Shown here: positions 17,167 through 36,032 of the stretch, one piece after another
Numbering within the stretch: the stretch's first letter is position 1
How the letters are laid out: every line of letters begins with the position of its first letter
Origin: a bacterium
Lineage (GTDB): Bacteria > Patescibacteriota > UBA1384 > VFKW01
Length of the DNA stretch: 64,000 nucleotides
Direction: 5' to 3'
Assembly: GCA_030647355.1 (NCBI GenBank)
Contig: JAUSIS010000013.1
Span: forward strand, 48,353 to 112,352
Notes under the pieces: model-generated
Told to the model about the DNA's origin: nothing
Seen by the model: the letters and a program-made list of their open reading frames with translations, nothing else
The model's database searches: none
Made by a program: the position numbers and the translations under genes

Positions 17167-17311
17167 TTCACCTCAAATTCTATATCCATCTAGCATGCAA
17201 CCAAATAATATAATATCTCACATCAAATAACAAAGATAGCTTTGTGGAAATCTAAGTCTATTGCGAACTTATACCCTACGCGATATACTGGTATTAGATT
17301 TAGGAGGGGCG

Positions 17312-19120
17312 ATGACTAAAGAGGAACTAGCTTCCTCAATTCAAAATCAAAGCCAACTTCCCCTAAGCGTTGTTGAGCGTGGTTTTGTGGCGGTTACAAA
17401 AGTACTTGCTGGCTCACTAAGCACCGGTGAATCATGCACAATACCCAAATTTGGTGAATTCCACTTTAATAAAGACAAAAAGATTGAAGTTACTCTAGAT
17501 CCAAACGCCAGCTCCGAAGAAGAAACCAGTTACGACGAATTGAAAGCCGAGGGAACTAGCGACGATAACAAAGTCGGTCTCTCGGCAATCCCCTACATGG
17601 ATCTCTCGTCTCGAAATATTCCTAAAGAAGTACTCGCATTTATACCGGAACACATTGCTAAACGTTATAAAATAGTGCCTGTGGAAGAAAAAGACGGCAA
17701 CTTGGTCGTTAGTATGATTGACCCGGAAGACCAAGAAACCGTAGAGCTTATCAAGAAACGAACCGGACTCCCGCTAGTGGTAACATTGTGCACCCAGGAC
17801 GATCTCAATCATGTTATAGATCAATATTCTGGAATAAATTCAGACGTCAACGCCCTAGTCCAAACATCCGGCGAAACCCTTGAGACTACCCAAGAAGAAG
17901 AGCCAAAAGAGGAAGTCACCGAAACAAGCGACCACGCGCCGGCAGCCAAGGTAGTAGATTCTCTGTTCAAACGAGCAGTCCGCGAAAAAGCATCAGATAT
18001 TCATATTGAACCGATGGAGACGGAAGTAATAGTCCGCTTTAGGATAGACGGCGTTCTTAGAAAAATCGTCACCTTGCCAAAAATGCTTCATCCTGCCGTA
18101 ATATCGAGAATAAAAATCCTCTCGAACTTAAAAATTGATGAGCTAAGATTACCCCAGGATGGCCGTTTCCAAATTAAGCTTAATCAAAATAAAATTGATT
18201 TTCGTATATCAACCCTTCCCACAGTAAATGGCGAGAAAATAGTCGCCCGTATATTAGATAAAAACGCCGGTGTGCTAACTCTCCCAGATCTTGGACTAAG
18301 AGGAAGTCCTCTGGAAACTATGAAAGATAATCTATCAAAATCTCATGGAATGATTCTGGTAACCGGTCCAACCGGCTCCGGTAAATCCACCACCCTTTAC
18401 GCCGCCCTTGATAAGATAAAAGATATCGCCATAAATATTGTAACTCTTGAGGATCCGGTAGAATATCGCATGCCCGGCATCAATCAATGCCAAATTAATA
18501 GCGAGATTGGCTACACATTTGCCAGTGGTCTTCGAGCAATTCTAAGGCAGGACCCCAATGTTGTAATGGTTGGTGAAATTCGCGACTTCGATACTGCCAA
18601 CATTGCTATCCACGCCGCCCTGACAGGTCATGTTGTCCTGTCAACTCTCCATACAAATAACGCATCCGGCGCCATACCTCGCCTCATTGATATGGACATA
18701 GAACCGTTTCTGATTAGCTCCTCGGTCAACGCCGTTGTCGCCCAAAGACTTTGCCGAAAAATCTGTTCTAAATGCAAGCAAGAGTTTTCCCTTGACGAAG
18801 GTACACTAAAAACCATCCAGGAGGAGATCGAAAAAATCCCCCAAGCCGAGAGAAAATCAATCGCGAAAACTTTGAAATTCTATAAAGGCAAGGGCTGTTC
18901 GGCCTGCAATAATTCAGGCTATCATGGAAGAGTTGGCATCTATGAAGTACTGCCAATCACCGACAAAATAAAAGAGATTCTCTCCAAAGAGGTTTCTGCC
19001 AATATTATAGAACAGGCCGCAATTGAGCAAGGTATGATCAATATGAAACAGGATGGGATTCTCAAAGCCATTGACGGGCTCACCACGATCGAGGAAGTTT
19101 GGCGCGTAACTAAAGATTAA
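17312..19120 (+). CDS. pilB: type IV pilus assembly ATPase PilB/GspE with N-terminal HU-like domain
   Basis: ASDIHIEP, GPTGSGKSTT, LRQDPNVVMVGEIRD, TGH, CxxC pairs; SD AGGAGGGG before ATG 17312. Confidence 0.92.
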   Translation: MTKEELASSIQNQSQLPLSVVERGFVAVTKVLAGSLSTGESCTIPKFGEFHFNKDKKIEVTLDPNASSEEETSYDELKAEGTSDDNKVGLSAIPYMDLSSRNIPKEVLAFIPEHIAKRYKIVPVEEKDGNLVVSMIDPEDQETVELIKKRTGLPLVVTLCTQDDLNHVIDQYSGINSDVNALVQTSGETLETTQEEEPKEEVTETSDHAPAAKVVDSLFKRAVREKASDIHIEPMETEVIVRFRIDGVLRKIVTLPKMLHPAVISRIKILSNLKIDELRLPQDGRFQIKLNQNKIDFRISTLPTVNGEKIVARILDKNAGVLTLPDLGLRGSPLETMKDNLSKSHGMILVTGPTGSGKSTTLYAALDKIKDIAINIVTLEDPVEYRMPGINQCQINSEIGYTFASGLRAILRQDPNVVMVGEIRDFDTANIAIHAALTGHVVLSTLHTNNASGAIPRLIDMDIEPFLISSSVNAVVAQRLCRKICSKCKQEFSLDEGTLKTIQEEIEKIPQAERKSIAKTLKFYKGKGCSACNNSGYHGRVGIYEVLPITDKIKEILSKEVSANIIEQAAIEQGMINMKQDGILKAIDGLTTIEEVWRVTKD

Positions 19121-23228: not shown

Positions 23229-24419
23229 TTGTTTTCTAATTTATTCAATAATCCTGCTTTAACTTTCGGCCTTGATATAGGTTACGATTCCTTGAAAGTC
23301 GTCCAGCTCAAAAAAACTGCTGGCGGTATTTGTTTGAAAGGTTTCAATTCTATTCCCCTTCCCTTCAACTCATTTACAAAAGACGGTATCACCAATCCCG
23401 AGCAAATAACCAGAGCCCTGAAGCAAGCTATGGATGAAGCCGAACCTCAAAGTATAAAATCAAAATATGCTATTACCTCACTACAGGAATCCATCGTTTT
23501 TTCTAAGATTGTCAATTTTCCGAAAGTCAAACAAAGCGATCTCGAAAATAGCATCAGGTATGAAATTGGTGAGATATTCCCTGTCCCAGTCGAAGAACTT
23601 TACTATGATTGGCAATTAATCAATGAACATGCCCAGGGTAATATGAAAGCTCCAGACATTACTAAGCAACCGGATGTAGAAAAACAAGAAGAGAAAGAAA
23701 AAGACAAAAAGTCAGAGAATAACAAAGACCAAAAAGAACCTAATCCAACTAATGAAGAGGAAATGGAACCGCAATTAGAAATTTTGGTCGCCGGAACACC
23801 CAAAAATATAGTTGATCAGTATCAAAAGATTTTAAATGAATGCGGCATCACAATATCAGCTCTAGAGACCAAATCAATCTCGTCAGCCAGAGCTACCTTA
23901 GATCCTTTTGAAAAGAAAGGCATATTGATTGTTGATATAGGAGCCGAAAGCACTAATCTCTCTATTTTTGATGAAGGCATCATTCGTTTCACTGGTACGG
24001 TAAAATGTGGCGGCAATGTCACCACGCGAGCTCTTTCGGGACTTGCCACTCTACCCGAAGATAGTAAAGAAAAACATACACTTATCCAAAATATAGATAC
24101 TAACCTAAATAACGAATTTGCCAAGAAAAAAGACCTGATAATCAAAAGTCTTCTGCCAATAACCCAAGAAATTAACCAAGCGATTAAATTTTACCAGAAC
24201 CGAGTCGGTAAAGTGGATAAATTAAACAGAATTACTATAACCGGCGGAGGTGCCAATATTCCCCATATTGCCGATATCATCGAAGAGCATACTGGTTTTA
24301 CCTGTGGAATAGCCAATCCTTTCACCAATATCAAACAGCCAAAAGATCAGTCATTAACTGCCTTCAGTCCATATACTGTAGCAATCGGTTGCGCTTTACG
24401 AAGCTTTATGGAGAACTAA
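23229..24419 (+). CDS. pilM: type IV pilus alignment protein PilM
   Basis: GLDIGYDSLKVVQL, VDIGAEST, TGGGA, ANPF, AIGCALR. Confidence 0.9.
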   Translation: MFSNLFNNPALTFGLDIGYDSLKVVQLKKTAGGICLKGFNSIPLPFNSFTKDGITNPEQITRALKQAMDEAEPQSIKSKYAITSLQESIVFSKIVNFPKVKQSDLENSIRYEIGEIFPVPVEELYYDWQLINEHAQGNMKAPDITKQPDVEKQEEKEKDKKSENNKDQKEPNPTNEEEMEPQLEILVAGTPKNIVDQYQKILNECGITISALETKSISSARATLDPFEKKGILIVDIGAESTNLSIFDEGIIRFTGTVKCGGNVTTRALSGLATLPEDSKEKHTLIQNIDTNLNNEFAKKKDLIIKSLLPITQEINQAIKFYQNRVGKVDKLNRITITGGGANIPHIADIIEEHTGFTCGIANPFTNIKQPKDQSLTAFSPYTVAIGCALRSFMEN

Positions 24420-24976
24420 TGCTAATTACTATCAATCTTCTGCCGCCAGAGCAAAGAAATAAAAAGACAGAGATTAAAAAAGGTGAAAAAATCTTTACCC
24501 TCAGTTTTACTATACTGGCGTGCACCGTAGCACTCTCAATTCTCTTATTTACATACAATACAACGATTAAACAGCAGCTTAACACGATTAACAGCCAAAT
24601 TTCCAGTGAAAATAGCAGACTCAATGATTACAAAGGCCTCCGTACTTCGCTAAATAACATGTCAAATACACTCATTTATATTGATACCATTGAGAAAAAG
24701 AGCATCAATTTAGAGAGTTTCCTGACACAATTCAGCAGTATAATACCTGAAAAAGCCCAAGTTACTTCGTTAGAGATCAGCGCCCTCCCCTCCCCTACCA
24801 TAGATATTTCCGGGAAAGCCGAATCTCGTACTGAAGTAATAAAATTATTTGAAAAAATGAAAACATCGCCTTTCTTCTCCGAACCGGAAATTAAAAGCCT
24901 GGACAAATCTGTAGATAAGGACGTAGCTAGTTTCCAATTTTCTATTTCTGCGAAAATTCTTCTGGAGAAATTATGA
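24419..24976 (+). CDS. pilN: PilN domain protein
   Basis: INLLP motif, TM helix and coiled coil; follows pilM. Confidence 0.82.
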   Translation: MLITINLLPPEQRNKKTEIKKGEKIFTLSFTILACTVALSILLFTYNTTIKQQLNTINSQISSENSRLNDYKGLRTSLNNMSNTLIYIDTIEKKSINLESFLTQFSSIIPEKAQVTSLEISALPSPTIDISGKAESRTEVIKLFEKMKTSPFFSEPEIKSLDKSVDKDVASFQFSISAKILLEKL

Positions 24977-25674
24977 CTAGTTCAAAAAAATCAACAATTA
25001 TAATATTAACCCTAACCAGTCTAATAATACTGGCTGCCATTTACTTTTTCATTTTACCTACCTGGCAGAATTACACCAAAACCACAAAAGAAATTGCCCA
25101 AAAAGACACCGAGCTTACTCAAATTAAAAGGGAAGTTGTAACTTACTCGAAGCTAGCCAAGCAGAAAGATCAAATAGCGCTTTATTCACAAAAAACCAGT
25201 AATCTGGTACCTGCAGAACCAGAACTGGAAACCTTTATGGTCGAACTAGAAGCGCTAATCGCGCAAAGTAAAATACCTCAAGCAGAGTTCCATTTAGCTA
25301 GTCTAACCGCCGGAACCACAACCACTAACAATCCATCAGTCCTGCAGGATACCAAAAATTACCAGATCATTATAACAGGGACTAGCTCACTAGCCAACAT
25401 TATCAATTTTACTAACCAACTCAAAACCTTATCCCGCTTAACCGAAACGACCGCCCTTGATATAAATACTACAGACAAAAATGATTCTATTGGTTTTTCT
25501 TTAACTGGCAATATCTTTTCCGAGGAAAAAAAGCCATCCGGTAAACTTCTAAATCCTTCCAAGATTCTTAGCGAGGCGATCGCCAAGATAACTGACTATC
25601 AAACATATGGCCAAAATATCGAAGTACAAAAAGAAGAAGGATTCGGCAGACCCAATCCCTTCACCTCATACTAG
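24973..25674 (+). CDS. pilO: PilO-like protein
   Basis: N-terminal TM, coiled coil, position after pilN; ends GRPNPF. Confidence 0.7.
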   Translation: MTSSKKSTIIILTLTSLIILAAIYFFILPTWQNYTKTTKEIAQKDTELTQIKREVVTYSKLAKQKDQIALYSQKTSNLVPAEPELETFMVELEALIAQSKIPQAEFHLASLTAGTTTTNNPSVLQDTKNYQIIITGTSSLANIINFTNQLKTLSRLTETTALDINTTDKNDSIGFSLTGNIFSEEKKPSGKLLNPSKILSEAIAKITDYQTYGQNIEVQKEEGFGRPNPFTSY

Positions 25675-25807: not shown

Positions 25808-25886
25808 GTCATTGCGAGGAGCGTAAGCGACGTGGCAATCTATTTTTCCCATAAAAGATTGCTTCGCGCCATCAACTCGCAATGAC
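25808..25886. repeat. REP/RPE-like palindromic element
   Basis: GTCATTGCGAG...GCAATCT...AGATTGC...CTCGCAATGAC nested inverted repeats; a related GTCATTCCGG hairpin at 25920-25943. Confidence 0.7.
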
Positions 25887-25970
25887 TAAAAATAGAAGCC
25901 ATCGAAAACTCCTAAAATCGTCATTCCGGGCTTGATCCGGAATTTATTATATCTATAAAGAAAAAACCGC

Positions 25971-26360
25971 CTACATGGCGGTTTTTTCTAAAGCAGCTTT
26001 TATCTTTTCTATTACCTCGCCCGGCATCGTCTCCGATTTCACTATATAATCATCGGCTCCGCTGGAAAGACCCTTCGCCTTATCAATATCTTGAATTAAT
26101 GCCGTGAGCAGCAAGACCGGTATATCCTTTGTTTCCTCATCGCCCTTTAGCATTTTTAACACATCTAACCCGTTTATTTTTGGCATCATAATGTCGAGCA
26201 AAATAACATTTGGATGTTCAGTCTTCGCCTTCTCTATCGCTTCCTCTCCATCTTTCGCCGAATCAACAGTAAATCCCTCCATTTTCAATCTTTCAACATA
26301 CATCTCTCGAAGTGTTAAGTCATCATCTACAATTAAAATTGATTTACCTGAATCCGCCAT
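25971..26360 (-). CDS. single-domain response regulator
   Basis: ILIVDDD, LLDIMMP, T, GADDYIVK. Confidence 0.93.
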   Translation of the reverse strand: MADSGKSILIVDDDLTLREMYVERLKMEGFTVDSAKDGEEAIEKAKTEHPNVILLDIMMPKINGLDVLKMLKGDEETKDIPVLLLTALIQDIDKAKGLSSGADDYIVKSETMPGEVIEKIKAALEKTAM

Positions 26361-26448
26361 GGTTCCTCCATATATTTTTTCGTTACAAACTGATATATAT
26401 ACCCATAAATCAGCCCGAACTTCTTATTACAGTCTCAATGTATCACTT

Positions 26449-26853
26449 TTAAAAATTATGTGCAACACTGGCCGCATCAAGAGCCACTTTCACCTTCTGC
26501 ACAACCTCTTTAGGCATTGTTTCTGATTTTATAATAAAATCATCCGCTCCCGCTTCCAAACCTACTGTACGATCCCTGCCCTGACTCAAAGCCGTCAAGA
26601 TAAAAATGGGAATAGTTCTCGTCTCTTTCTGGTGTCGCAAATATTTCAGCACTTCAATCCCATTCATCTCAGGCATCATAATGTCAAGCAGAATTAGATC
26701 GGGCTTGAATCGCGGAATATCCTCTAGCGCAACTTTCCCGTTTTCCGCCCGCATTACATCAAAATCCTCTGCCTTCAGGCGGATGGCATACATTTCAGCC
26801 AGCGTCTCGTCGTCCTCTACCAACATGACTCTTTTGTGTGCTTGCGGCCTCAT
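26449..26853 (-). CDS. single-domain response regulator (paralog of neighbour)
   Basis: LVEDD, LLDIMMP, GADDFIIKSETMP. Confidence 0.93.
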   Translation of the reverse strand: MRPQAHKRVMLVEDDETLAEMYAIRLKAEDFDVMRAENGKVALEDIPRFKPDLILLDIMMPEMNGIEVLKYLRHQKETRTIPIFILTALSQGRDRTVGLEAGADDFIIKSETMPKEVVQKVKVALDAASVAHNF

Positions 26854-26866
26854 AATTTCTCCTTTT

Positions 26867-29203
26867 TTATTTTACTTGCTTAAGATAACTTTCCATCGGA
26901 TTCTTCACATCAATCTTATCAGCATCACTTGTCGTCGGCTTGGTTAGAACCGCCCCTTCCCCCTCAAAAGGATCGGCTGGTTTTTGGGAAACTATCGGCA
27001 AAGTGAATTTGAAAATTGCACCCTTACCTCCGCCAGCTGGTGGACTCTCAATCCATATTTTACCACTATGCAGCTCCACCAGTTTCTTGCTGATATAAAG
27101 CCCCAAGCCCGACCCCTGAAATTCGTTTTTTTCGCGATTGAGCTGGCTGAATTTTTTAAATAGTTTATCGGCATCCTCTTGCTTTATCCCCACACCCGTA
27201 TCCGATACTGTAAATTCGAGCGACCTGCCGTCAACCTTCGCCTCAATAGTCACTCCGCCTTTTTCCGTGAACTTGATCGCATTGCCTGCCAAATTAACTA
27301 AAACTTCGCGAATCCTATTTATGTCTATCCAAGTTTGCGGCAATTTATGCTCCGGCTTCTCAAATTTCAAATAAATCTTCTTCGCATTTGATTTTACGCT
27401 CAATTCATCAATAACGCTCTGAACCAATTCCTCCGGACCTATTTCTCCGTACATCAAATGAATTCTCCCCTGCTCGATTCTGGAGACATTTAAAAGATCG
27501 AGTATCAAAACCGCCAACCGTTTGCTGGATGCATAAACTCTATCCAAATATTCTTTGGCCGTAGCGTCAACTTTGCCCATTCCTTCATCCAAAATCATGC
27601 TTAAATAGCCCTGTATTGCCGCCAAAGGCGTATTCATCTCATGACTGGCAACCGAGATAAATTCGTCTTTCATCTGATCCAAATCCTTCAAGTAATCGTT
27701 CGCCTTCTTTAAATTTTCATACGCTATCGCTCTCTGGACAGCCAAGCTTACTTCGTTCGAAATGGCTGCCATCATACTGATCGCTTCGGTGGCAATATCC
27801 TCGATTGGATGTTTCAATCCATAAATGGCCACTCCGAATCTCTCATCCTTAGCTGATAACGGGATGGCAATCAGTCCTTTTATATCACTTTTTGTTTGAA
27901 GTTCCCTAGCTAGAGTCTTATCAAGCGGCGGCGACACAAAATCCGATAGGTTATTCCCCTTCTGTTCCTTTTGACTATGGTACGCCATCATAAGTAAGTT
28001 TTCACGGTTTTTCAGAGGAATGGCAGTCGAACGCACCACTTCCTTCCACTTATCCAAAAGCCCATCAGATAAATTAGTCTCGGACAGGGCATACCCCTTC
28101 ATCTTCTCACTCTCCTGGTCAACCAACGCCACTACCACTCCCATACATTCATCGATCTCCTTAGGAATGGTATTGATAATTTGCTGAATCATCGGCTTCA
28201 TCTCATTATTATCGAGGACTATATCAGAAAATTTCTGCAAAGTTGATAGATTTTTATTTCGCTCGTCAACTTCCTTGAGCGCCCTCTCCCTCTCCTTTGC
28301 CAGCGTCTCCATCTCCTCCCGCTGCTTGATTTCTTTTCTAACACTTCTTATCAACGAAAAACCACCAAATACCGCCAATAACCAGACAATACTCTTAAGC
28401 ATTCCCTCACCAACCGAATTAGATAAAAATACTTCGATCAAAAGACCAAGTGAAAGTAAGATTACTATAGTCTCGGTTGTAACTACTTTAATATCAAACA
28501 AACCTGTTTTTATTATACCGTAAGCTATAAATCCAACGAAAAATATTATTGAATAATTACCAATACGATAGAGCGACTGGTTATCTAGAATAATTGGAAT
28601 AGTGGTATTAAATAAGACCTCAAGAAGAACGAATATCCCAAAACCCAATAATAAGTATTTTAATTGAAGCTTTTTTATACCATAAGTATTAAAATAATTT
28701 CTCACGAAGATTATTAAAGAGGTTAGTAGTAAAATTAGTGAAAAAGGTAGAAATATTTGAAAATAAGCATTACTGGTGATTACATCAAAACCCCATTGAG
28801 TGTGCTTAATCCCCGTTGCAAAAAAAGAAGTAAAAACCGTAACTATAAATAAAATCGTGGCACAAATCAAAATGAATAAATTAAGAAGATTCACATAACG
28901 CGAAAGCTTAATATGAAATGGATAAACTAAAGAAAAGAAGTATAAAGTTATACACATCCCAACAACCGAACCAAAAGTAATTCTACTTAACAATAGCGTT
29001 ACCCACTCGTTTGTATTTACAAAAAACTCAGAAACATAGGCAGAAGAAACTATCAAACATGAAAATAAAGCAAATCCAATAAAATATTTATTAGCAATAT
29101 CTTTGGGATCTTTTAAATATACTACTAATCCTAAAAAGATACATGTGATACAAATAATTAATACACCAATTGATTCCATGTTCAGTAGTAATCCGGAAAT
29201 CAT
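26867..29203 (-). CDS. sensor histidine kinase: multi-TM (7TM-like) sensor + GAF-like + HisKA + HATPase
   Basis: ASHEMNTPL, NLAGNAIKF, DTGVGI, GSGLGL; hydrophobic N-terminal ~290 aa. Confidence 0.92.
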   Translation of the reverse strand: MISGLLLNMESIGVLIICITCIFLGLVVYLKDPKDIANKYFIGFALFSCLIVSSAYVSEFFVNTNEWVTLLLSRITFGSVVGMCITLYFFSLVYPFHIKLSRYVNLLNLFILICATILFIVTVFTSFFATGIKHTQWGFDVITSNAYFQIFLPFSLILLLTSLIIFVRNYFNTYGIKKLQLKYLLLGFGIFVLLEVLFNTTIPIILDNQSLYRIGNYSIIFFVGFIAYGIIKTGLFDIKVVTTETIVILLSLGLLIEVFLSNSVGEGMLKSIVWLLAVFGGFSLIRSVRKEIKQREEMETLAKERERALKEVDERNKNLSTLQKFSDIVLDNNEMKPMIQQIINTIPKEIDECMGVVVALVDQESEKMKGYALSETNLSDGLLDKWKEVVRSTAIPLKNRENLLMMAYHSQKEQKGNNLSDFVSPPLDKTLARELQTKSDIKGLIAIPLSAKDERFGVAIYGLKHPIEDIATEAISMMAAISNEVSLAVQRAIAYENLKKANDYLKDLDQMKDEFISVASHEMNTPLAAIQGYLSMILDEGMGKVDATAKEYLDRVYASSKRLAVLILDLLNVSRIEQGRIHLMYGEIGPEELVQSVIDELSVKSNAKKIYLKFEKPEHKLPQTWIDINRIREVLVNLAGNAIKFTEKGGVTIEAKVDGRSLEFTVSDTGVGIKQEDADKLFKKFSQLNREKNEFQGSGLGLYISKKLVELHSGKIWIESPPAGGGKGAIFKFTLPIVSQKPADPFEGEGAVLTKPTTSDADKIDVKNPMESYLKQVK

Positions 29204-29225
29204 TTTCCCCTCGCTTTATTGATTT

Positions 29226-30809
29226 TTAAACAATCAATCTTGGTTTTGTTCTGTTGCTATCTTCTGCAAAAGGGCCATCGCGAAATGGATATATTTTTAC
29301 TATAGGGAGACATGTCGCCAGGTCCTCAATACATGCCTGATTAAAATCCGTATTGACTTTCTTTAAGTGATTCAAGATTGCTAAAACATAGTGCTCTGAT
29401 AGTGTTAATAGTTTTTCATTTTCAATTTTAGCATTTTTCTTTAATTCCAAGTAGATTACAAATTGCGAGTTACCATGTTCGTCTTCTGTTTTGGAAAGTT
29501 TGTACCCATTAAATTGTTCAGCACTTAATACAATCTTTTCGATTTGACTTGGATAAACATTGGCACTCGCAATTGATAGCGCTTGTTGTCTGGAATAAAC
29601 ATATACAAAAGGTAATCTCCAGACTTTATAAGACTTTGGTGTATTGTTTTCAGTCAATAGTTTCTGAATATCATAGCCATTATCATCTAACGCTTTAAGC
29701 ATTTTATTATAAGGAACGATACCGCCAACATCTTCTATATCATACCTAATCAATGGCACACCAGAATAACTGGATAATACTATGTGGTCTTCGTTCAGCA
29801 TCTCAATATAATAAGCGGATGGGTTATACTGCACAATACTTGGTGCATAATCTTCACCAAACAATTGTTTACAAAATTTCTTGTCTTCGCTTGCAATCTT
29901 GCGAATAATATTGGTCAGCAAAGACCCAAACCCTATTCCACCAGCGTCAGCAGTACCATAAACATCCAGCAAGGTATTTATTGAGTCTGAATTTGGTTTT
30001 TTCTGGTCGGTTAACTGGCACATTACTGCACTTTTCCAATTATCTGATACCGCCTCTCCTCCTGTTTGTATTTTTACACTTAATTTTTCCCAATTAATTC
30101 CATTATTCTTACCCTCATTAATAACTAACTTAATAAAAGAAGGATATCCAGCTATTACGATCTGATCATAATCTTCGGCAAGTTTTTTAATACAATATAA
30201 TACATGATCGAGATTTGCCCCAGGAGTTGCTATTGTTAATTGTAACTTTGGATCATCGAGTGATACTTGTTTCATTAACCATGTATTTAACTCTCCCGCT
30301 ATCCATGGTCCCAAAGCATAAGTAACAATCCATAAAGTGGATTTTTTATCAATCTCCCAACAATTCTGATATACAACTCTAACATATTTAGGAAGTATCC
30401 AGTCTTGATTTTTATCTCTAAACCAAAAAACTGGTTCACCTGTGGTGCCAGATGTTGTTGCAAAATTATACATTTCCTGAATGGGAGCAGACAATAATTG
30501 CTCTCTTCGATAACGATTAAAATATTGCTTCTTATTTGTGATAGGTACATATTCCTTGAAATTCTCAATAGTTTTTATTTTTGTATGGTCTTTTAAACCA
30601 TTTTTCTTTAAAAAATCTTTATAGGCCGGCACCTTTTCGGCTGCCTCGTGAAAACTAATTAGTAGTTTCTTTTTACCTTGTTTTTCCCAAAATGAGGCGG
30701 GCATTGTAGATAAAAACCACATTGCTCTTTTGGGATTCGACATAAAAAACTTTTGCATCAAATTACCGATTTTCATTTTCTCCTTGTTATAATTATCCCC
30801 ATGGGTCAA
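29226..30809 (-). CDS. phenylacetate-CoA ligase-like (ANL superfamily) adenylating enzyme
   Basis: VPAY, TTSGTTGEP, GYPSF, GGE, YGTAD, PLIRYDIED, NVYP. Confidence 0.82.
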   Translation of the reverse strand: MTHGDNYNKEKMKIGNLMQKFFMSNPKRAMWFLSTMPASFWEKQGKKKLLISFHEAAEKVPAYKDFLKKNGLKDHTKIKTIENFKEYVPITNKKQYFNRYRREQLLSAPIQEMYNFATTSGTTGEPVFWFRDKNQDWILPKYVRVVYQNCWEIDKKSTLWIVTYALGPWIAGELNTWLMKQVSLDDPKLQLTIATPGANLDHVLYCIKKLAEDYDQIVIAGYPSFIKLVINEGKNNGINWEKLSVKIQTGGEAVSDNWKSAVMCQLTDQKKPNSDSINTLLDVYGTADAGGIGFGSLLTNIIRKIASEDKKFCKQLFGEDYAPSIVQYNPSAYYIEMLNEDHIVLSSYSGVPLIRYDIEDVGGIVPYNKMLKALDDNGYDIQKLLTENNTPKSYKVWRLPFVYVYSRQQALSIASANVYPSQIEKIVLSAEQFNGYKLSKTEDEHGNSQFVIYLELKKNAKIENEKLLTLSEHYVLAILNHLKKVNTDFNQACIEDLATCLPIVKIYPFRDGPFAEDSNRTKPRLIV

Positions 30810-31584
30810 TTAGTATTGAATCTGGGGTAAGAGGTATTGGAACGCCTTCAATTAATTTAATAATTGCTCCTACGATAATTGAAGAAGTAATACTAGCGCT
30901 TACCCCAAGCTGTGGCACAAATCCATTATCTTTTATTATCTGTTGGTATGTTTTTACAAAATTTAATTTATTCTTAAAAGGATCTGGCATCCTTTTAATG
31001 CTATTCATGATCAACATAGCAAAGCATTCATCACCATACACTTTTCCTCCTACTATATCTTCAATCGTTGCTGATTGAGGTGAAAATACTAATGCAAAAC
31101 CACCAAACCCGAATGTAAAAGGAAATAATACATATTTATTTTGCTTACGAGCTTCGGCATTAATAATATAGATCACCTCATTGGGGTCAGCCATATTTAC
31201 AACAATATCACTTTTTTTTATCAACATCTCCACCTCTTTTTGATGTTTAACGAATTTCGGATAAACTTCAACTTTACAGTGAGGATTGATTGTAAGGATT
31301 TTTTTCTTTATAGCTTTGGCTTTATTTACTCCAACATCTTTAATATCAAAAGCTTGACGATTTAAATTACTTAATTCAACTTTATCCCCATCGCAAAGGA
31401 TAAAATTTTTAAAACCTTTTCTTGCAGCTGAAATAGCTATTTGACTACCCAGACCGCAACCAATTAAAAGAATTTTAGTTTTTTTTATTTTTTTTTGTGT
31501 ATCGTTAGAAATAAGACCAAAATTACGTCTCAAAAACTCTTCCATAAACCGATCCGGATGTTTAGGTATTTTCTTTGTTATCAT
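30793..31584 (-). CDS. ThiF/MoeB/HesA (E1-like) adenylyltransferase
   Basis: IGCGLGS, DGDKVELSNLNRQ, GVNKA, INP. Confidence 0.88.
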   Translation of the reverse strand: MITKKIPKHPDRFMEEFLRRNFGLISNDTQKKIKKTKILLIGCGLGSQIAISAARKGFKNFILCDGDKVELSNLNRQAFDIKDVGVNKAKAIKKKILTINPHCKVEVYPKFVKHQKEVEMLIKKSDIVVNMADPNEVIYIINAEARKQNKYVLFPFTFGFGGFALVFSPQSATIEDIVGGKVYGDECFAMLIMNSIKRMPDPFKNKLNFVKTYQQIIKDNGFVPQLGVSASITSSIIVGAIIKLIEGVPIPLTPDSILIDPWG

Positions 31585-31594
31585 AAAATCCCAT

Positions 31595-31861
31595 TCAATT
31601 CTTATATTTAAAAAATAAAACAGCCATGATAATTACTCCTGGAATATTTATAGATTCTAGGGCGATAATCGGCCATTCTTTGATTACTATTCCATAATTT
31701 AACCATGCCAATTCGGTTATAACGATTCCTAGAATTAATATAATAGAAAAATCCTTAGCACTTTTCGTTTTCCATATTTTCCACACTTGTGAATAAATGC
31801 CTAAAGTAATGGTAAGGCTGGCTACAAAAGTTACCAGTCGGCTTATATCAACATAACTCAT
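31595..31861 (-). CDS. SemiSWEET/PQ-loop family small transporter
   Basis: QVWKIWKTKSAKDFS, W..YG, PII; 3 TM, 88 aa. Confidence 0.85.
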   Translation of the reverse strand: MSYVDISRLVTFVASLTITLGIYSQVWKIWKTKSAKDFSIILILGIVITELAWLNYGIVIKEWPIIALESINIPGVIIMAVLFFKYKN

Positions 31862-31921
31862 ATGAAATAATCCCCGTTATTAATATAAATATATCATTAA
31901 TTATGATCGGATACAATATAA

Positions 31922-31948
31922 TTAAATCATAACTATATCTGAAACCAT
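31922..31948 (-). CDS. putative 8-residue peptide MVSDIVMI (candidate precursor or leader peptide)
   Basis: AAGGAGG SD 6 nt before ATG; TATACT -10 at 31976-31981; first ORF of the cassette. Confidence 0.45.
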   Translation of the reverse strand: MVSDIVMI

Positions 31949-32237
31949 AAATGTCCTCCTTTATTATTCTAATACAGTATAGCCGCCTACGAAAAACTTC
32001 GGTACTTATCAAAAAAATCAAGATCGCCCTGCCCTACTCTCATTTAACCACAATCGCCAAAAAACCCATATAGTCACATATACAAGGAGAGGTAATCCAA
32101 CTTATCCTAATTCTTCACCACCTGAATAGAGTTCAATATCTTTTTCCCAACCCAACCTATCACGCTCTTCTCACACTCTTCCAACCACAACCACTTCGAC
32201 ACATTCCCCCAACCCCAACCCGATATTACCGACCCAC

Positions 32238-32275
32238 CGTAACCGCTTCTGCGCTATAGCGCATAACTAGTTACG
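32238..32275. repeat. palindromic direct repeat, copy 1
   Basis: CGTAAC-cgcttc-TGCGCTATAGCGCA-taacta-GTTACG. Confidence 0.8.
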
Positions 32276-32325
32276 CTTACAGGAGGTACAATATTTAAAA
32301 AAAATGAAGCTGACTCTGAAATATA

Positions 32326-32856
32326 CTATTCACCTTGGTTTAAATTAAAATATTTTACTAATTTATCCGCGCCCGGCAAAAAATCTGTCTTCAAATACGC
32401 GACAAATGAAGAAATTCCACAAGATTGAGTTAAAATCGCAATCTCTTCTTTACATTCGTAAGGAATAACCCATAAACTATCCTGAACCTGAAAAAACCCA
32501 AAATTAATCAATTTCCGCCTGAAGTAATCTCTTTCCTTCTTTTTACTTTCTGGAATATCATAGCTCACCAGATGCCAAATCCCATCCCAATATTCGAATT
32601 TACTAATCACAAGCTCATCAATTTTAAATCTTTCCAATAATTCCAATCCCTTCTCTGTCAATTTGACTTTCTCGCCAGCTAAATAGATAATCCCCTTTTC
32701 TTCCAGCAATTTCAAATTTTTCTTATATCTATATTTTTGCTGACGATTTTGCAACATCAAAACCTGAGCCACATTCGGTGCCACAAATGCCGAGGCCAAG
32801 ATCAACCCTGTCTCCACCATCTTCAAAATTTCCTTTTGCTTTTTCGATATTCTCAT
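32326..32856 (-). CDS. PaaX-like / Cas2-like protein (wHTH + ferredoxin-like domain)
   Basis: LTEKG, WDGIWHLVSYDIPE, RDYFRRKL..FGF..VQDSLWVIPY; TGtTATAAT just upstream of ATG 32856. Confidence 0.8.
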   Translation of the reverse strand: MRISKKQKEILKMVETGLILASAFVAPNVAQVLMLQNRQQKYRYKKNLKLLEEKGIIYLAGEKVKLTEKGLELLERFKIDELVISKFEYWDGIWHLVSYDIPESKKKERDYFRRKLINFGFFQVQDSLWVIPYECKEEIAILTQSCGISSFVAYLKTDFLPGADKLVKYFNLNQGE

Positions 32857-32934
32857 AGTTAAATTATAACAAAATACAACTATATTCGTACTACCCAAAT
32901 TTATGCTACCCAACTAAATACCTGATCAACCTAT

Positions 32935-32971
32935 CGTAACCACCTCTGCGCTATAGCGTATAACTAGTGAC
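32935..32971. repeat. palindromic direct repeat, copy 2
   Basis: CGTAACcacctcTGCGCTATAGCGtATAACTAGT; 31 of 34 positions match copy 1. Confidence 0.8.
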
Positions 32972-33189
32972 ATATTAATGTGGCAAAAAGCGACATTTCT
33001 ATTTTACATTGACAGAACCGCCATGGAGCCACCAACGAATCTATGACAGTCCGTTGTGGTCCCAAATGGTAAGATAAGACTAGCTGATCAATAGCACGAT
33101 CTAATTCAGGCGATGTGCACGCTCGCTATTGAGGAACTTGCAGACAAGAATGTGCTGCCAGAACCAATAAAGAGAGCTATTATAGCAAG

Positions 33190-33228
33190 AGGGGTCGGCA
33201 ATGCCTAGGGAAACGCCGACCCCCTTTT
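33190..33228 (+). terminator. intrinsic terminator (possibly bidirectional)
   Basis: GGGGTCGGC...GCCGACCCC then TTTT. Confidence 0.6.
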
Positions 33229-33670
33229 ATTTTTTATACAGATTGATGAGAAAATTATTAGCTGTTTTAAGTATCTGGGCACTTGAATTGTGTGATATTT
33301 TCTTACTTGCCTGATCAAAATCAAGCCATAAGTAATCAACGATTTCTTCCGGCCTCATGATCTTAGCATCGGTATTAAGTACTTTACCTAGATAATATGT
33401 AACAGTCTTATCGAGAATCTTTCCATCCTTTTCAAATATGTATTTATCCGATAACCCTTGATCGGATATAATTTCAAACTCTGTAATACCGGTTTCTTCA
33501 TATATTTCCCGTTTAATTGTCTCAAATATAGTCTCATCTTTTTCCGGATGCCCCTTGGGAAATGCCCAGTGGCCTGTTCTATGATGGATTAATAGATATA
33601 AATAACGGCCATCTTCTTTATAAAATGGTATGAGTCCATAAGATTGATCTTTAATTATTTCTTTTCCCAT
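33227..33670 (-). CDS. NUDIX hydrolase (Ap4A hydrolase-like)
   Basis: HWAFPKGH..KDET..ET.KRE..EETG. Confidence 0.9.
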   Translation of the reverse strand: MGKEIIKDQSYGLIPFYKEDGRYLYLLIHHRTGHWAFPKGHPEKDETIFETIKREIYEETGITEFEIISDQGLSDKYIFEKDGKILDKTVTYYLGKVLNTDAKIMRPEEIVDYLWLDFDQASKKISHNSSAQILKTANNFLINLYKK

Positions 33671-34727: not shown

Positions 34728-36032
34728 ATGGAAACAAACAAACACACTCTAAAATCCCAAATAAATATCGAACGCATCGGCTGGCTTATCGGTCTGGCGC
34801 TTTTACTGTACCTACCCAACCTGTACCCGGCGCAATTCTCCAAAATGACTGAACTTGCCTACACGGGATTAATACTTTCAACTGCCCTGCTTTATTATTA
34901 CCTCGCCTACAATCTTCTTCGCATAACAAAAAGTTGCTACGCCAAAAATATCGGCGACATCCTGTTCCTAAATTCGCTCCTCTTCCTTGCAATCCAAACA
35001 AAATCCTATATCGCGCTCATCCTCATAATTCCTATCGCCGGTTCGTTATTGATCCTAAACAGAATCAACGGTTTGATCGTCGCCGCCTCTGCCATAATCC
35101 TGGTTGGGCTGGAAATTTTTGTTGAAAATAATAACAACATTACACTCTACTTCGACCCGGTCTATGTTCTGATTGTTTTGGCAGTTATTATCACTTTCTA
35201 TATGAGAATACTTGCCCAAAAAGCGCATTATGAACACCTCGTGAGACAGGAGGAAGAAAGTAAATTAGCCGAAATCAACATAAAATTATCCAACTTAGAA
35301 CACCAAGGCAAAGAATTCACGACTTTGGCAGCCAGACAAATCTCAACACCGCTTGCCACTATCCAAAGCTTCGTCCAAACACTTTCAAGCGAGAAAGACG
35401 GACATCTAAACGACAAACAAAAAGTATTTATCAAAGAGACTGCCAATTACATCGAAAAAATGCATGGTCTGATATCCGAACTGCTTTATATAACAAAGGT
35501 CGAATTCAGCCCACCCCCCGAGCTTCGACCAATGGACATTTTAGACACCACCAAAGAGGTCATCAAGAAATTTGAACCCTATCTTAAAGAAAAAAACACC
35601 GAGATAAAACTAAAATATCCTAACAATGACATGCCTAACATAAAAGCCGATAAGAATTACCTGCCGGAAATACTCAATAGATTAATTGACAACGCTATAA
35701 AATATTCACCCGATAAATCACCGATAGAAATCGTCCTGCAAATCGTTCACAAAGACAATAAACCGTACCTAAGTCTAGACATCTCCGATCGTGGACTTGG
35801 CATTCCCAATGAAGAGCAAAAATATTTGTTTCACAAATTCTTTCGCGGTAGCAATATAATTGATACTGAAATACCCGGCAACGGACTAAGTTTGTATGTA
35901 GTAAAGCTCTTAGCCGACAAACAAAACTGTAAAATTGATTTTAAATCAAAAACTGATGAAGGGACATCGTTTCTATTAGATTTCCCGCTGGAAAAAAGTG
36001 ACGCAAAAAAAGGCGGCTCCAGCCGCCAATAA
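34728..36032 (+). CDS. membrane histidine-kinase-like protein lacking the phospho-acceptor His
   Basis: H-box reads AARQISTPL; NAIKY, DRGLGIP, GNGLSL retained. Confidence 0.8.
   Translation: METNKHTLKSQINIERIGWLIGLALLLYLPNLYPAQFSKMTELAYTGLILSTALLYYYLAYNLLRITKSCYAKNIGDILFLNSLLFLAIQTKSYIALILIIPIAGSLLILNRINGLIVAASAIILVGLEIFVENNNNITLYFDPVYVLIVLAVIITFYMRILAQKAHYEHLVRQEEESKLAEINIKLSNLEHQGKEFTTLAARQISTPLATIQSFVQTLSSEKDGHLNDKQKVFIKETANYIEKMHGLISELLYITKVEFSPPPELRPMDILDTTKEVIKKFEPYLKEKNTEIKLKYPNNDMPNIKADKNYLPEILNRLIDNAIKYSPDKSPIEIVLQIVHKDNKPYLSLDISDRGLGIPNEEQKYLFHKFFRGSNIIDTEIPGNGLSLYVVKLLADKQNCKIDFKSKTDEGTSFLLDFPLEKSDAKKGGSSRQ

Follow-up and report, generated by a model that had tools for sequence, protein, structure and literature searches.

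A PaaK-like ligase, an AclA-like ThiF enzyme and a mosaic 7TM histidine kinase at a candidate signalling locus of a patescibacterial genome

The window analysed here, 64,000 nucleotides (nt) of contig JAUSIS010000013.1 from a Patescibacteriota genome (GCA_030647355.1), carries a run of seven reading frames on the − strand: a mini open reading frame (mini-ORF), a SemiSWEET-family transporter, a short ThiF enzyme, an ANL adenylating enzyme (hereafter the ligase), a membrane histidine kinase and two stand-alone receivers (Table 1). The original prediction, made from the sequence, had read this run as a cassette in which the two enzymes make a diffusible molecule, the transporter moves it and the kinase senses it. 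The six genes and the mini-ORF are all present where that prediction had placed them and are tightly packed: in gene order the intergenic gaps are 60, 10, 16, 22, 13 and 88 nt, with 10–22 nt separating SemiSWEET, ThiF, ligase and kinase. The cassette also converges, as had been claimed, on the type IV pilus operon, because the pilM/pilN/pilO-like genes run on the + strand and stop at 25674. The source genome comprises 1.04 Mb in 14 contigs, with completeness rated 100%, and by the profile and sequence queries used here it holds one copy each of the ligase, ThiF, SemiSWEET and 7TM sensor. A scan for promoters and terminators gave 28 sites against 27.5 expected, i.e. no excess. The locus is interpreted below as a candidate unit for the synthesis and sensing of a small molecule.

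Table 1. Features of the locus and its pilus-operon neighbour, in window coordinates (aa, amino acids; GC3, GC content at third codon positions).
Feature	Position	Strand	Evidence or remark
Mini-ORF MVSDIVMI, 8 codons	31922..31948	−	AGGAGG Shine-Dalgarno site; real frame
SemiSWEET-family transporter	31595..31861	−	NF037968 E 7e-13, MtN3_slv
Short ThiF/E1-like enzyme, 263 aa	30793..31584	−	PF00899 E 1.5e-36
PaaK/F390-like ANL adenylating enzyme (ligase)	29226..30776	−	Weak PaaK/FlxY/GH3-N matches
Kinase, whole gene	26867..29203	−	HisKA_7TM aa 14-238, HisKA, HATPase
Kinase membrane sensor half, aa 1-about 280, HisKA_7TM	28364..29203	−	Low GC3; divergence from same-family orthologues
Kinase cytoplasmic half: GAF-like, HisKA, HATPase	26867..28363	−	Conserved in G163, G401
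Stand-alone receiver 1, 134 aa	26449..26853	−	PF00072
Stand-alone receiver 2, 129 aa	25971..26360	−	Receiver family match; 50% identity to receiver 1
pilM, pilN, pilO-like end of type IV pilus operon	23229..25674	+	Context; convergent with cassette

From its modelled structure, the ThiF enzyme is predicted to be AclA-like and to cyclise an N-acyl amino acid at the cost of ATP. The solved structure nearest to the model (predicted local distance difference test score 92) is PDB 9EGB, entitled 'AclA from Tenacibaculum discolor in complex with substrate' (VIA-align Z 31.9, root-mean-square deviation 2.0 A, 242 aligned residues, 28% identity), followed by ThiF/MoeB (Z 25.2), PaaA (23.8) and MccB (23.6). 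The same entry is the best match by phmmer (7e-25), Foldseek (1.8e-21) and profile search (5e-53; runner-up 2e-31). The conserved R20, GxG, D65, NLNRQ, K88, D133 and PQ motif are kept, the motifs P-x-N/T-x-G-W/F-G and PQL are shared with AclA, and the enzyme has no CxxC (zinc) motifs. Matches to the PRK08223 and Rv1355c families are weak (2e-19 and 3e-19, compared without OxzB/TyzB sequences). A FastTree phylogeny built from 35 short ThiFs and a sub-sample of 16 long ones places all the short sequences in a single clade (support 1.0), separate from a long TrzS-like clade; the short clade mixes ligase-linked, FeeM-linked and Riemerella enzymes, and its internal order is not firm. In Riemerella, the gene for a protein that matches 9EGB at 2e-98 is convergent with an adjoining LuxR-type gene.

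AclA is reportedly an ATP-dependent cyclase whose partner is a lysine N-acyltransferase, whereas the partner here is an ANL ligase and no FeeM was found in the genome. The N-acyl-cyclolysine (ACL) system (AclA, PDB 9EGB/9EGC/9EGD; Linares-Otoya 2025 Nature, as described in PMC13080023 and PMC13419125) resembles the present locus in its stand-alone short ThiF, which has the same fold over the whole length, and in having two enzymes beside a receptor. In the Bacteroidota, the two ACL enzymes encoded beside luxR make secreted, density-dependent molecules (PMC13080023). The receptors differ: LuxR there, a membrane kinase with stand-alone receivers here, where no LuxR occurs among the flanking ORFs.

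The original prediction had drawn its analogy from peptide-modifying enzymes, MccB and PaaA, with MVSDIVMI as the substrate, and this part did not hold. In such a scheme, the locus would be a system for peptides made by ribosomes and modified after translation (RiPPs), in which ThiF adenylates or cyclises MVSDIVMI like MccB, PaaA or EnfB and the kinase senses the peptide; this is very improbable. The mini-ORF does have a perfect ribosome-binding site of a kind that is rare in this genome, since AGGAGG-led mini-ORFs precede only 3 of 607 long ORFs, and its C-terminal Ile recalls the EnfA/IndA cores (PMC12596934). RiPP-type ThiF enzymes (MccB, PaaA and EnfB), however, combine a RiPP recognition element (RRE) at the N-terminus with a precursor peptide. 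The about 90-residue RRE of MccB/PaaA is absent from the window's enzyme, where the catalytic domain begins at residue 10–20; MccB and PaaA align to the model only from their residue 89–97 onward. No Shine-Dalgarno-led mini-ORF was found in 19 other short-ThiF loci, for which 350 nt upstream were scanned for SD-led ATG starts only (less in 3 loci with <350 nt available). The locus encodes neither a peptidase nor an ABC exporter, and AclA, a small-molecule enzyme, is nearer in structure than MccB or PaaA by 8 Z units. A peptide substrate was rejected on the absent RRE, the unconserved mini-ORF and this structural kinship. The MVSDIVMI frame is real but probably not a substrate, and is likely a remnant or a leader.

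The ligase belongs to an unclassified PaaK/F390-like ANL family that is common in Patescibacteria. Its start is placed at the ATG at 30776 because homologues begin there, and it keeps the ANL motifs (P-loop TSGTTG, YGTAD, D349 and terminal Lys511). Its profile matches PaaK enzymes in the PDB (E 7e-22), and its ESM Atlas neighbour has a TM score of 0.61. Against the curated PaaK family it scores 42.8 bits where the cut-off is 646, and no paa catabolic genes occur in the ligase neighbourhoods. CoaE was also not found, and identity as a PaaK phenylacetate-CoA ligase was rejected. By analogy, the enzyme is predicted to be an acid:amino-acid ligase that may supply an N-acyl amino acid directly, like OlsH, a GH3-like acyl acid amido synthetase that N-acylates an amino acid from the free acid at the expense of ATP (PMC12493201). 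Lack of CoA is a weak argument for such a route, since acyl-CoA-using enzymes fill the slot in other genomes. OlsH thus offers a parallel for an ATP-dependent ligase in place of an N-acyltransferase, but it is a true GH3 enzyme that makes a membrane-lipid precursor, whereas the window's ligase is PaaK-like (PMC12493201). Searches of the genome did not find CoaE, acyl carrier protein (ACP), FeeM or nitroreductase (PF00881). Elsewhere, the same slot holds a short ThiF with a FeeM/LuxI-like acyltransferase beside it (G414, L228, L231, L233, L235 and L253), so ligase and acyltransferase alternate. Plasmid-borne ligase homologues of Nonomuraea and Gemmatirosa have no ThiF or 7TM neighbours (BLAST against the set of this study); the ligase family therefore also exists without the cassette.

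Across the phylum, ligase matches occur in 48 of 401 genomes (42 at E <= 1.1e-20). In all, 128 ligase loci including the window were gathered, with the metagenome part being the best 80 of 406; these reduced to 104 non-redundant loci at 90%, and 56 had 3 kb on both sides. Within these 3 kb a ThiF gene lies in 47 loci, a 7TM sensor (by a profile built from these same ligase loci) in 46 and both in 42, so that the ThiF, PaaK-like and 7TM kinase neighbourhood proposed in the original prediction recurs. A loose juxtaposition of housekeeping genes at an insertion hotspot (a thiamine/molybdopterin ThiF, a phenylacetate CoA ligase and a sugar transporter) is hardly credible. The best NCBIfam names, ThiF/MoeB and PaaK, and the PaaX-like gene upstream would fit it, but it is largely refuted by this linkage; moreover, all NCBIfam scores fall far under the curated cut-offs, CxxC zinc motifs are lacking, and by the queries used the ThiF-family and ligase genes are each single in the genome. 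Housekeeping ThiF/PaaK functions were rejected on the sub-cut-off scores, the zinc motifs and the conserved linkage. The ligase is not confined to cassettes, as 4 of the 56 loci lack ThiF, sensor and oxidase alike, and the SemiSWEET is present in only two, one being the window.

These loci divide by their ThiF. Type A, with a short ThiF, accounts for 11 of the 56 including the window, and none has an oxidase or a deaminating enzyme. Type B (36/56) is marked by a long ThiF that belongs to the Rv1355c/TrzS family (12 of 12 tested, at E 1e-59 to 1e-104), with a flavin oxidase in 25 of the 36, and by sequence kinship corresponds to a split oxazolone synthetase. Four loci carry a methyltransferase in place of ThiF, and a Leu/Phe dehydrogenase, ammonia-lyase or aminotransferase is found in 19 of the 56. 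In the known oxazolone synthetases OxzAB, TyzACB and TrzAS, the ThiF domain likewise cyclises an N-acyl amino acid with ATP (10.1101/2020.06.11.147165; PMC10404671; PMC12856293). The type B sister cassettes resemble a TrzS that has been split into a long ThiF and a flavin oxidase. Unlike these systems, the window's locus and genome have no oxidase and no acyltransferase, and the known synthetases have no cognate kinase; an oxazolone product was rejected for this locus because no oxidase is present.

The kinase keeps His521 and its N and G boxes intact. Of the multi-TM/GAF histidine kinase that had been described, the HisKA_7TM, HisKA and HATPase domains are borne out; the GAF domain (about aa 320–495) has no Pfam match at E 0.05 and is a motif likeness only, and hydropathy gives 8–9 membrane segments rather than 7. 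The sensor profile has no match among PDB sequences at E <= 5, and ESM Atlas neighbours were only HisKA_7TM and PaaK-like. The kinase is a mosaic in which an exchanged, low-GC sensor module sits on a conserved core. Against its same-family orthologues in genomes G163 and G401, the core (HisKA and HATPase) is 72% and 77% identical, whereas the sensor half is 26% and 22% identical, and the drop is sharp, at aa 270–285. GC content is 0.29–0.35 across 28400–32000, and GC3 is 0.22 in ThiF, 0.28 in the ligase and 0.24 in the sensor half, as against 0.49 in the kinase core; the genome mean is 0.40, and 42 hydrophobic ORFs of the genome average 0.38 with a minimum of 0.25. Misassembly at the mosaic junction was rejected: there is no sign of it, because a Logan contig of run X1, which is possibly the window's own source and thus not independent, spans 25812–33500 with zero differences at flat depth. 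Runs X2 and X3 gave short pieces only.

The neighbouring genes follow the sensor and not the core. The gene order of the window from the kinase through the two receivers to pilO/N/M is kept in G163 (receiver 1 orthologue 69% identical), and upstream of the G163 kinase lie acyl-CoA-ligase-like, GNAT-like and methyltransferase genes with no match to the window's ligase. At the same slot G401 has a type B cassette with a ligase 28% identical to the window's. The window's kinase core is sister to that of G401 (support 1.0), whereas its sensor is nearer (36–38%) to type A sensors of distant genomes and groups with the sensors of other short-ThiF cassettes. Over 56 loci, Mantel r is 0.58 for sensor and ligase, 0.19 for sensor and core and 0.09 for ligase and core; over 49 loci, it is 0.57 for ThiF and sensor and 0.02 for ThiF and core. 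The A/B label needs a single switch on the ligase tree, a single one on the sensor tree and five on the tree of the core (mean after shuffling, 11.7). Synthase and sensor thus vary together on a conserved core at the level of cassette type, which upholds by these measures the co-phylogeny of sensor and enzymes suggested in the original prediction; the nearest-neighbour and within-type tests are neutral.

The slot upstream of the kinase holds other synthases elsewhere in the class. Sensor profile matches occur in 99 of its 151 genomes, and 40 of the higher-ranked loci were sampled, leaving out already-seen and contig-end sites, so that the sample favours ligase-linked-like sensors. In 38 of the 40, no more than 106 nt separate the kinase start from the end of a co-oriented gene. 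The abutting genes encode ThiF (7), another GNAT family (6), UbiA (5), methyltransferase-like (4), oxidase (3), ligase (3), BioF/CqsA-like (3), FeeM-like (2) and weakly matched terpene-synthase-like (2) proteins, and an amidinotransferase-like, a radical SAM and an acyl-ACP-reductase-like protein (1 each). As a control, 19 kinases without this sensor were taken; three were dropped, two with a divergent cassette-gene neighbour and a fragment behind a 7TM kinase, and none of the remaining 16 has a synthase-type neighbour (receivers 4, NUDIX 3, no family 3; the rest kinase, glycosyltransferase, peptidase, Ig-like, AAA and FtsK). The UbiA (L236, L237, L239, L241, L260, L185 and L186), terpene-synthase-like (L250 and L252) and GNAT (L247, L249, L251, L258, L261 and L262) genes upstream of 7TM kinases are candidates for making prenylated, terpenoid or acylated signals. 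In genomes of the candidate phyla radiation (CPR), 51 CqsA-like and 18 LuxI-like genes beside kinases were published in 2020 (PMC7567580), and both families fill the same slot here. That survey covers known synthases only and, in the parts available, describes no ligase/ThiF form and no exchange; a term search found '7TM' absent from its text, and ThiF, HisKA_7TM and PF16927 absent from nine supplementary files (PMC7567580). The claim of an undescribed system therefore stands in part: synthases beside CPR kinases were known, but no paper on a unit of ligase, AclA-like ThiF and 7TM kinase was found in the literature searched, which has most subscription journals outside its coverage, and supplements of ACL papers and preprints may list such clusters. 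No circuit with signal and receptor was found to be established for Patescibacteria in the same literature.

On this evidence, the locus is moderately likely to be a signal synthesis-and-sensing unit. A scavenged carboxylic acid and an amino acid would be joined into an amide by the ligase, scavenging of both substrates being suggested because CoaE, ACP and FeeM were not found. The ThiF enzyme, by its kinship to AclA and TrzS, would close the amide into a neutral ring, which may be a lactam or a saturated azlactone because no oxidase is encoded. The membrane sensor of the same low-GC block may detect this ring, as the joint exchange suggests, and the signal would pass to His521 and on to the two stand-alone receivers, which have the requisite motifs. 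Output would be post-translational, since no DNA-binding response regulator was found, and perhaps on pili; the SemiSWEET may move a substrate or product. The earlier view that the enzymes make a molecule that the kinase senses is thus retained through the conserved co-occurrence and a sensor that tracks the enzymes and not the core, and loses its peptide route. The quorum-sensing loci agr and comQXP are themselves mosaic. Like agr/comQXPA and CqsA–CqsS/LqsA–LqsS, the present locus pairs a variable synthase with an N-terminal sensor that also varies, while the kinase core is conserved; unlike them, whole enzyme families are swapped and not alleles, and there is no peptide and no DNA-binding regulator. 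By analogy, it seems to work as an agr/comQXP-type specificity locus with ACL-like chemistry, as a member of neither family.

Several observations weigh against this interpretation. A position of AclA inside the ThiF clade of the window lacks firm support (0.73–0.75, long branch), and because of this and the identity of only 28% its substrate is not transferable to ThiF. The ligase is nearer to PaaK CoA ligases than to GH3, its GH3-N match being under the cut-off, and no source of the acid was found encoded in the genome. Nearest-neighbour agreement is 18/56 for ligase and sensor against 19/56 for sensor and core, and within cassette types the sensor–ligase correlation (0.62, 0.27) is no better than that of sensor and core (0.57, 0.25). 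Sensor GC3 is under core GC3 in 37 of 40 loci, sensors are fast-evolving anyway, and the Mantel p-values are too favourable because related genomes are not independent. For the known oxazolones, no visible phenotype or receptor has been reported (10.1101/2020.06.11.147165), and no ligand for any HisKA_7TM domain was found in the literature searched.

There are two other accounts of what the enzymes do. In the first, which is unlikely, the locus detects a host or environment: the SemiSWEET would import a host acid or amine, the enzymes would convert it to a ligand within the cell or its membrane and the kinase would report attachment to a host, not density. No CoaE, ACP, FeeM or acid-generating enzyme was found in the genome, short-ThiF cassettes never include the deaminating enzymes that 19 of 56 loci contain, and SemiSWEETs are usually importers, all of which such a detector would accommodate; set against this, enzymes and sensor are exchanged jointly among same-family genomes, as kin-specific signalling predicts, and other cassettes at the slot encode classical autoinducer-synthase families. 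In the second, which is quite unlikely, the product would be a stress lipid, or else a secreted or membrane metabolite directed at competitors or the host, and the kinase would control or protect its production without sensing it as a signal. Many N-acyl amino acids are lipids or antimicrobials, major facilitator superfamily exporters occur in four class loci, and oxazolones are antibiotic-induced with no known receptor (10.1101/2020.06.11.147165; PMC12856293), but no DNA-binding response regulator was found through which genes could be controlled, and it is the sensor half, not the core, that travels with the enzymes.

The SemiSWEET is a real but optional part, because its divergent subfamily recurs with FeeM, UbiA and CqsA-like cassettes. 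In this subfamily G-x-Y-x-Q replaces PQ and helix 2 has an acidic residue, changes shared by nine SemiSWEETs (one duplicate) beside 7TM kinases with different synthases. The two receivers keep the phospho-Asp motif, and all four receiver matches over the cut-off in the genome are open frames of 131–150 aa without output domains; output is therefore probably via protein contact, and no transcriptional regulator for autoinduction was found in the genome. Pilus genes come next in 8 of 36 class loci, in about 4 kb of visible flank, and are present in 5 of 50 ligase loci taken across the phylum, figures on which a general functional tie to pili was rejected. The link is one of lineage synteny and convergent orientation, and gives a hint, weakly supported, of output on pili.

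A broader proposal can be offered tentatively, as somewhat doubtful. The HisKA_7TM domains of Patescibacteria could be a large receptor family for self-made small molecules and the slot a 'dialect' locus that exchanges whole synthase families together with the sensor half of a single conserved kinase, the sets being ligase with AclA-like ThiF, ligase with split oxazolone synthetase, FeeM with ThiF, CqsA-like, UbiA, terpene-synthase-like and methyltransferases. A signal made from scavenged substrates would then act through the receivers on the type IV pilus motor and switch between attachment and dispersal; because a scavenged acid and amino acid are needed, kin density would be reported only where the host is suitable. 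The locus supplies matched enzyme–receptor pairs and natural non-cognate controls (G163, G401 and G414) that are testable in E. coli without culturing. If the signalling reading is true, it would add a route by which a ligase leads to cyclic N-acyl amino acids and might include the first receptor for such compounds outside LuxR, and it could point to host-attachment cues in mostly uncultured epibionts.

Further observations concern the cassettes and their surroundings. Some type A ThiFs (L046:6928-7947, L051:6933-7946; P0127, P0134 and P0135) are extended at the N-terminus by about 90 aa that form three membrane helices, which suggests that the cyclase is fused to an anchor or a transporter-like domain. 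One type A locus (L034) comes from a contig that bears the label Pacearchaeota. The cassettes at L034:8193-11388, L035, L036 and L048 have ThiF copies in tandem and additional 7TM sensor genes, either duplicated or stand-alone. In type B, a conserved NAD-binding epimerase-like gene (L122:4411-5529 and four more loci) is divergent from the cassette and sits where other loci have the dehydrogenase or lyase. In the window, a direct repeat of 43 nt (86%), palindromic at its core, at 32232–32274 and 32929–32971, flanks the single PaaX/Cas2-like regulator gene (32326–32856); the motif has only these two sites in the genome, and they are possible operator sites or an insertion scar. At L056, a PaaX-like gene is two genes away from the SemiSWEET. 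The palindromic element at 25808–25841, between the receivers and pilO, is common to many unrelated contigs in three metagenomes and is a repeat like repetitive extragenic palindromes or miniature inverted-repeat transposable elements (REP/MITE-like). A second kinase with a PilS-like 6TM domain (34728–36032) lies behind a xylose-isomerase-like TIM barrel gene, and at 17261–19120 a PilB-type ATPase carries an HU-like DNA-binding domain N-terminal of its MshEN domain.

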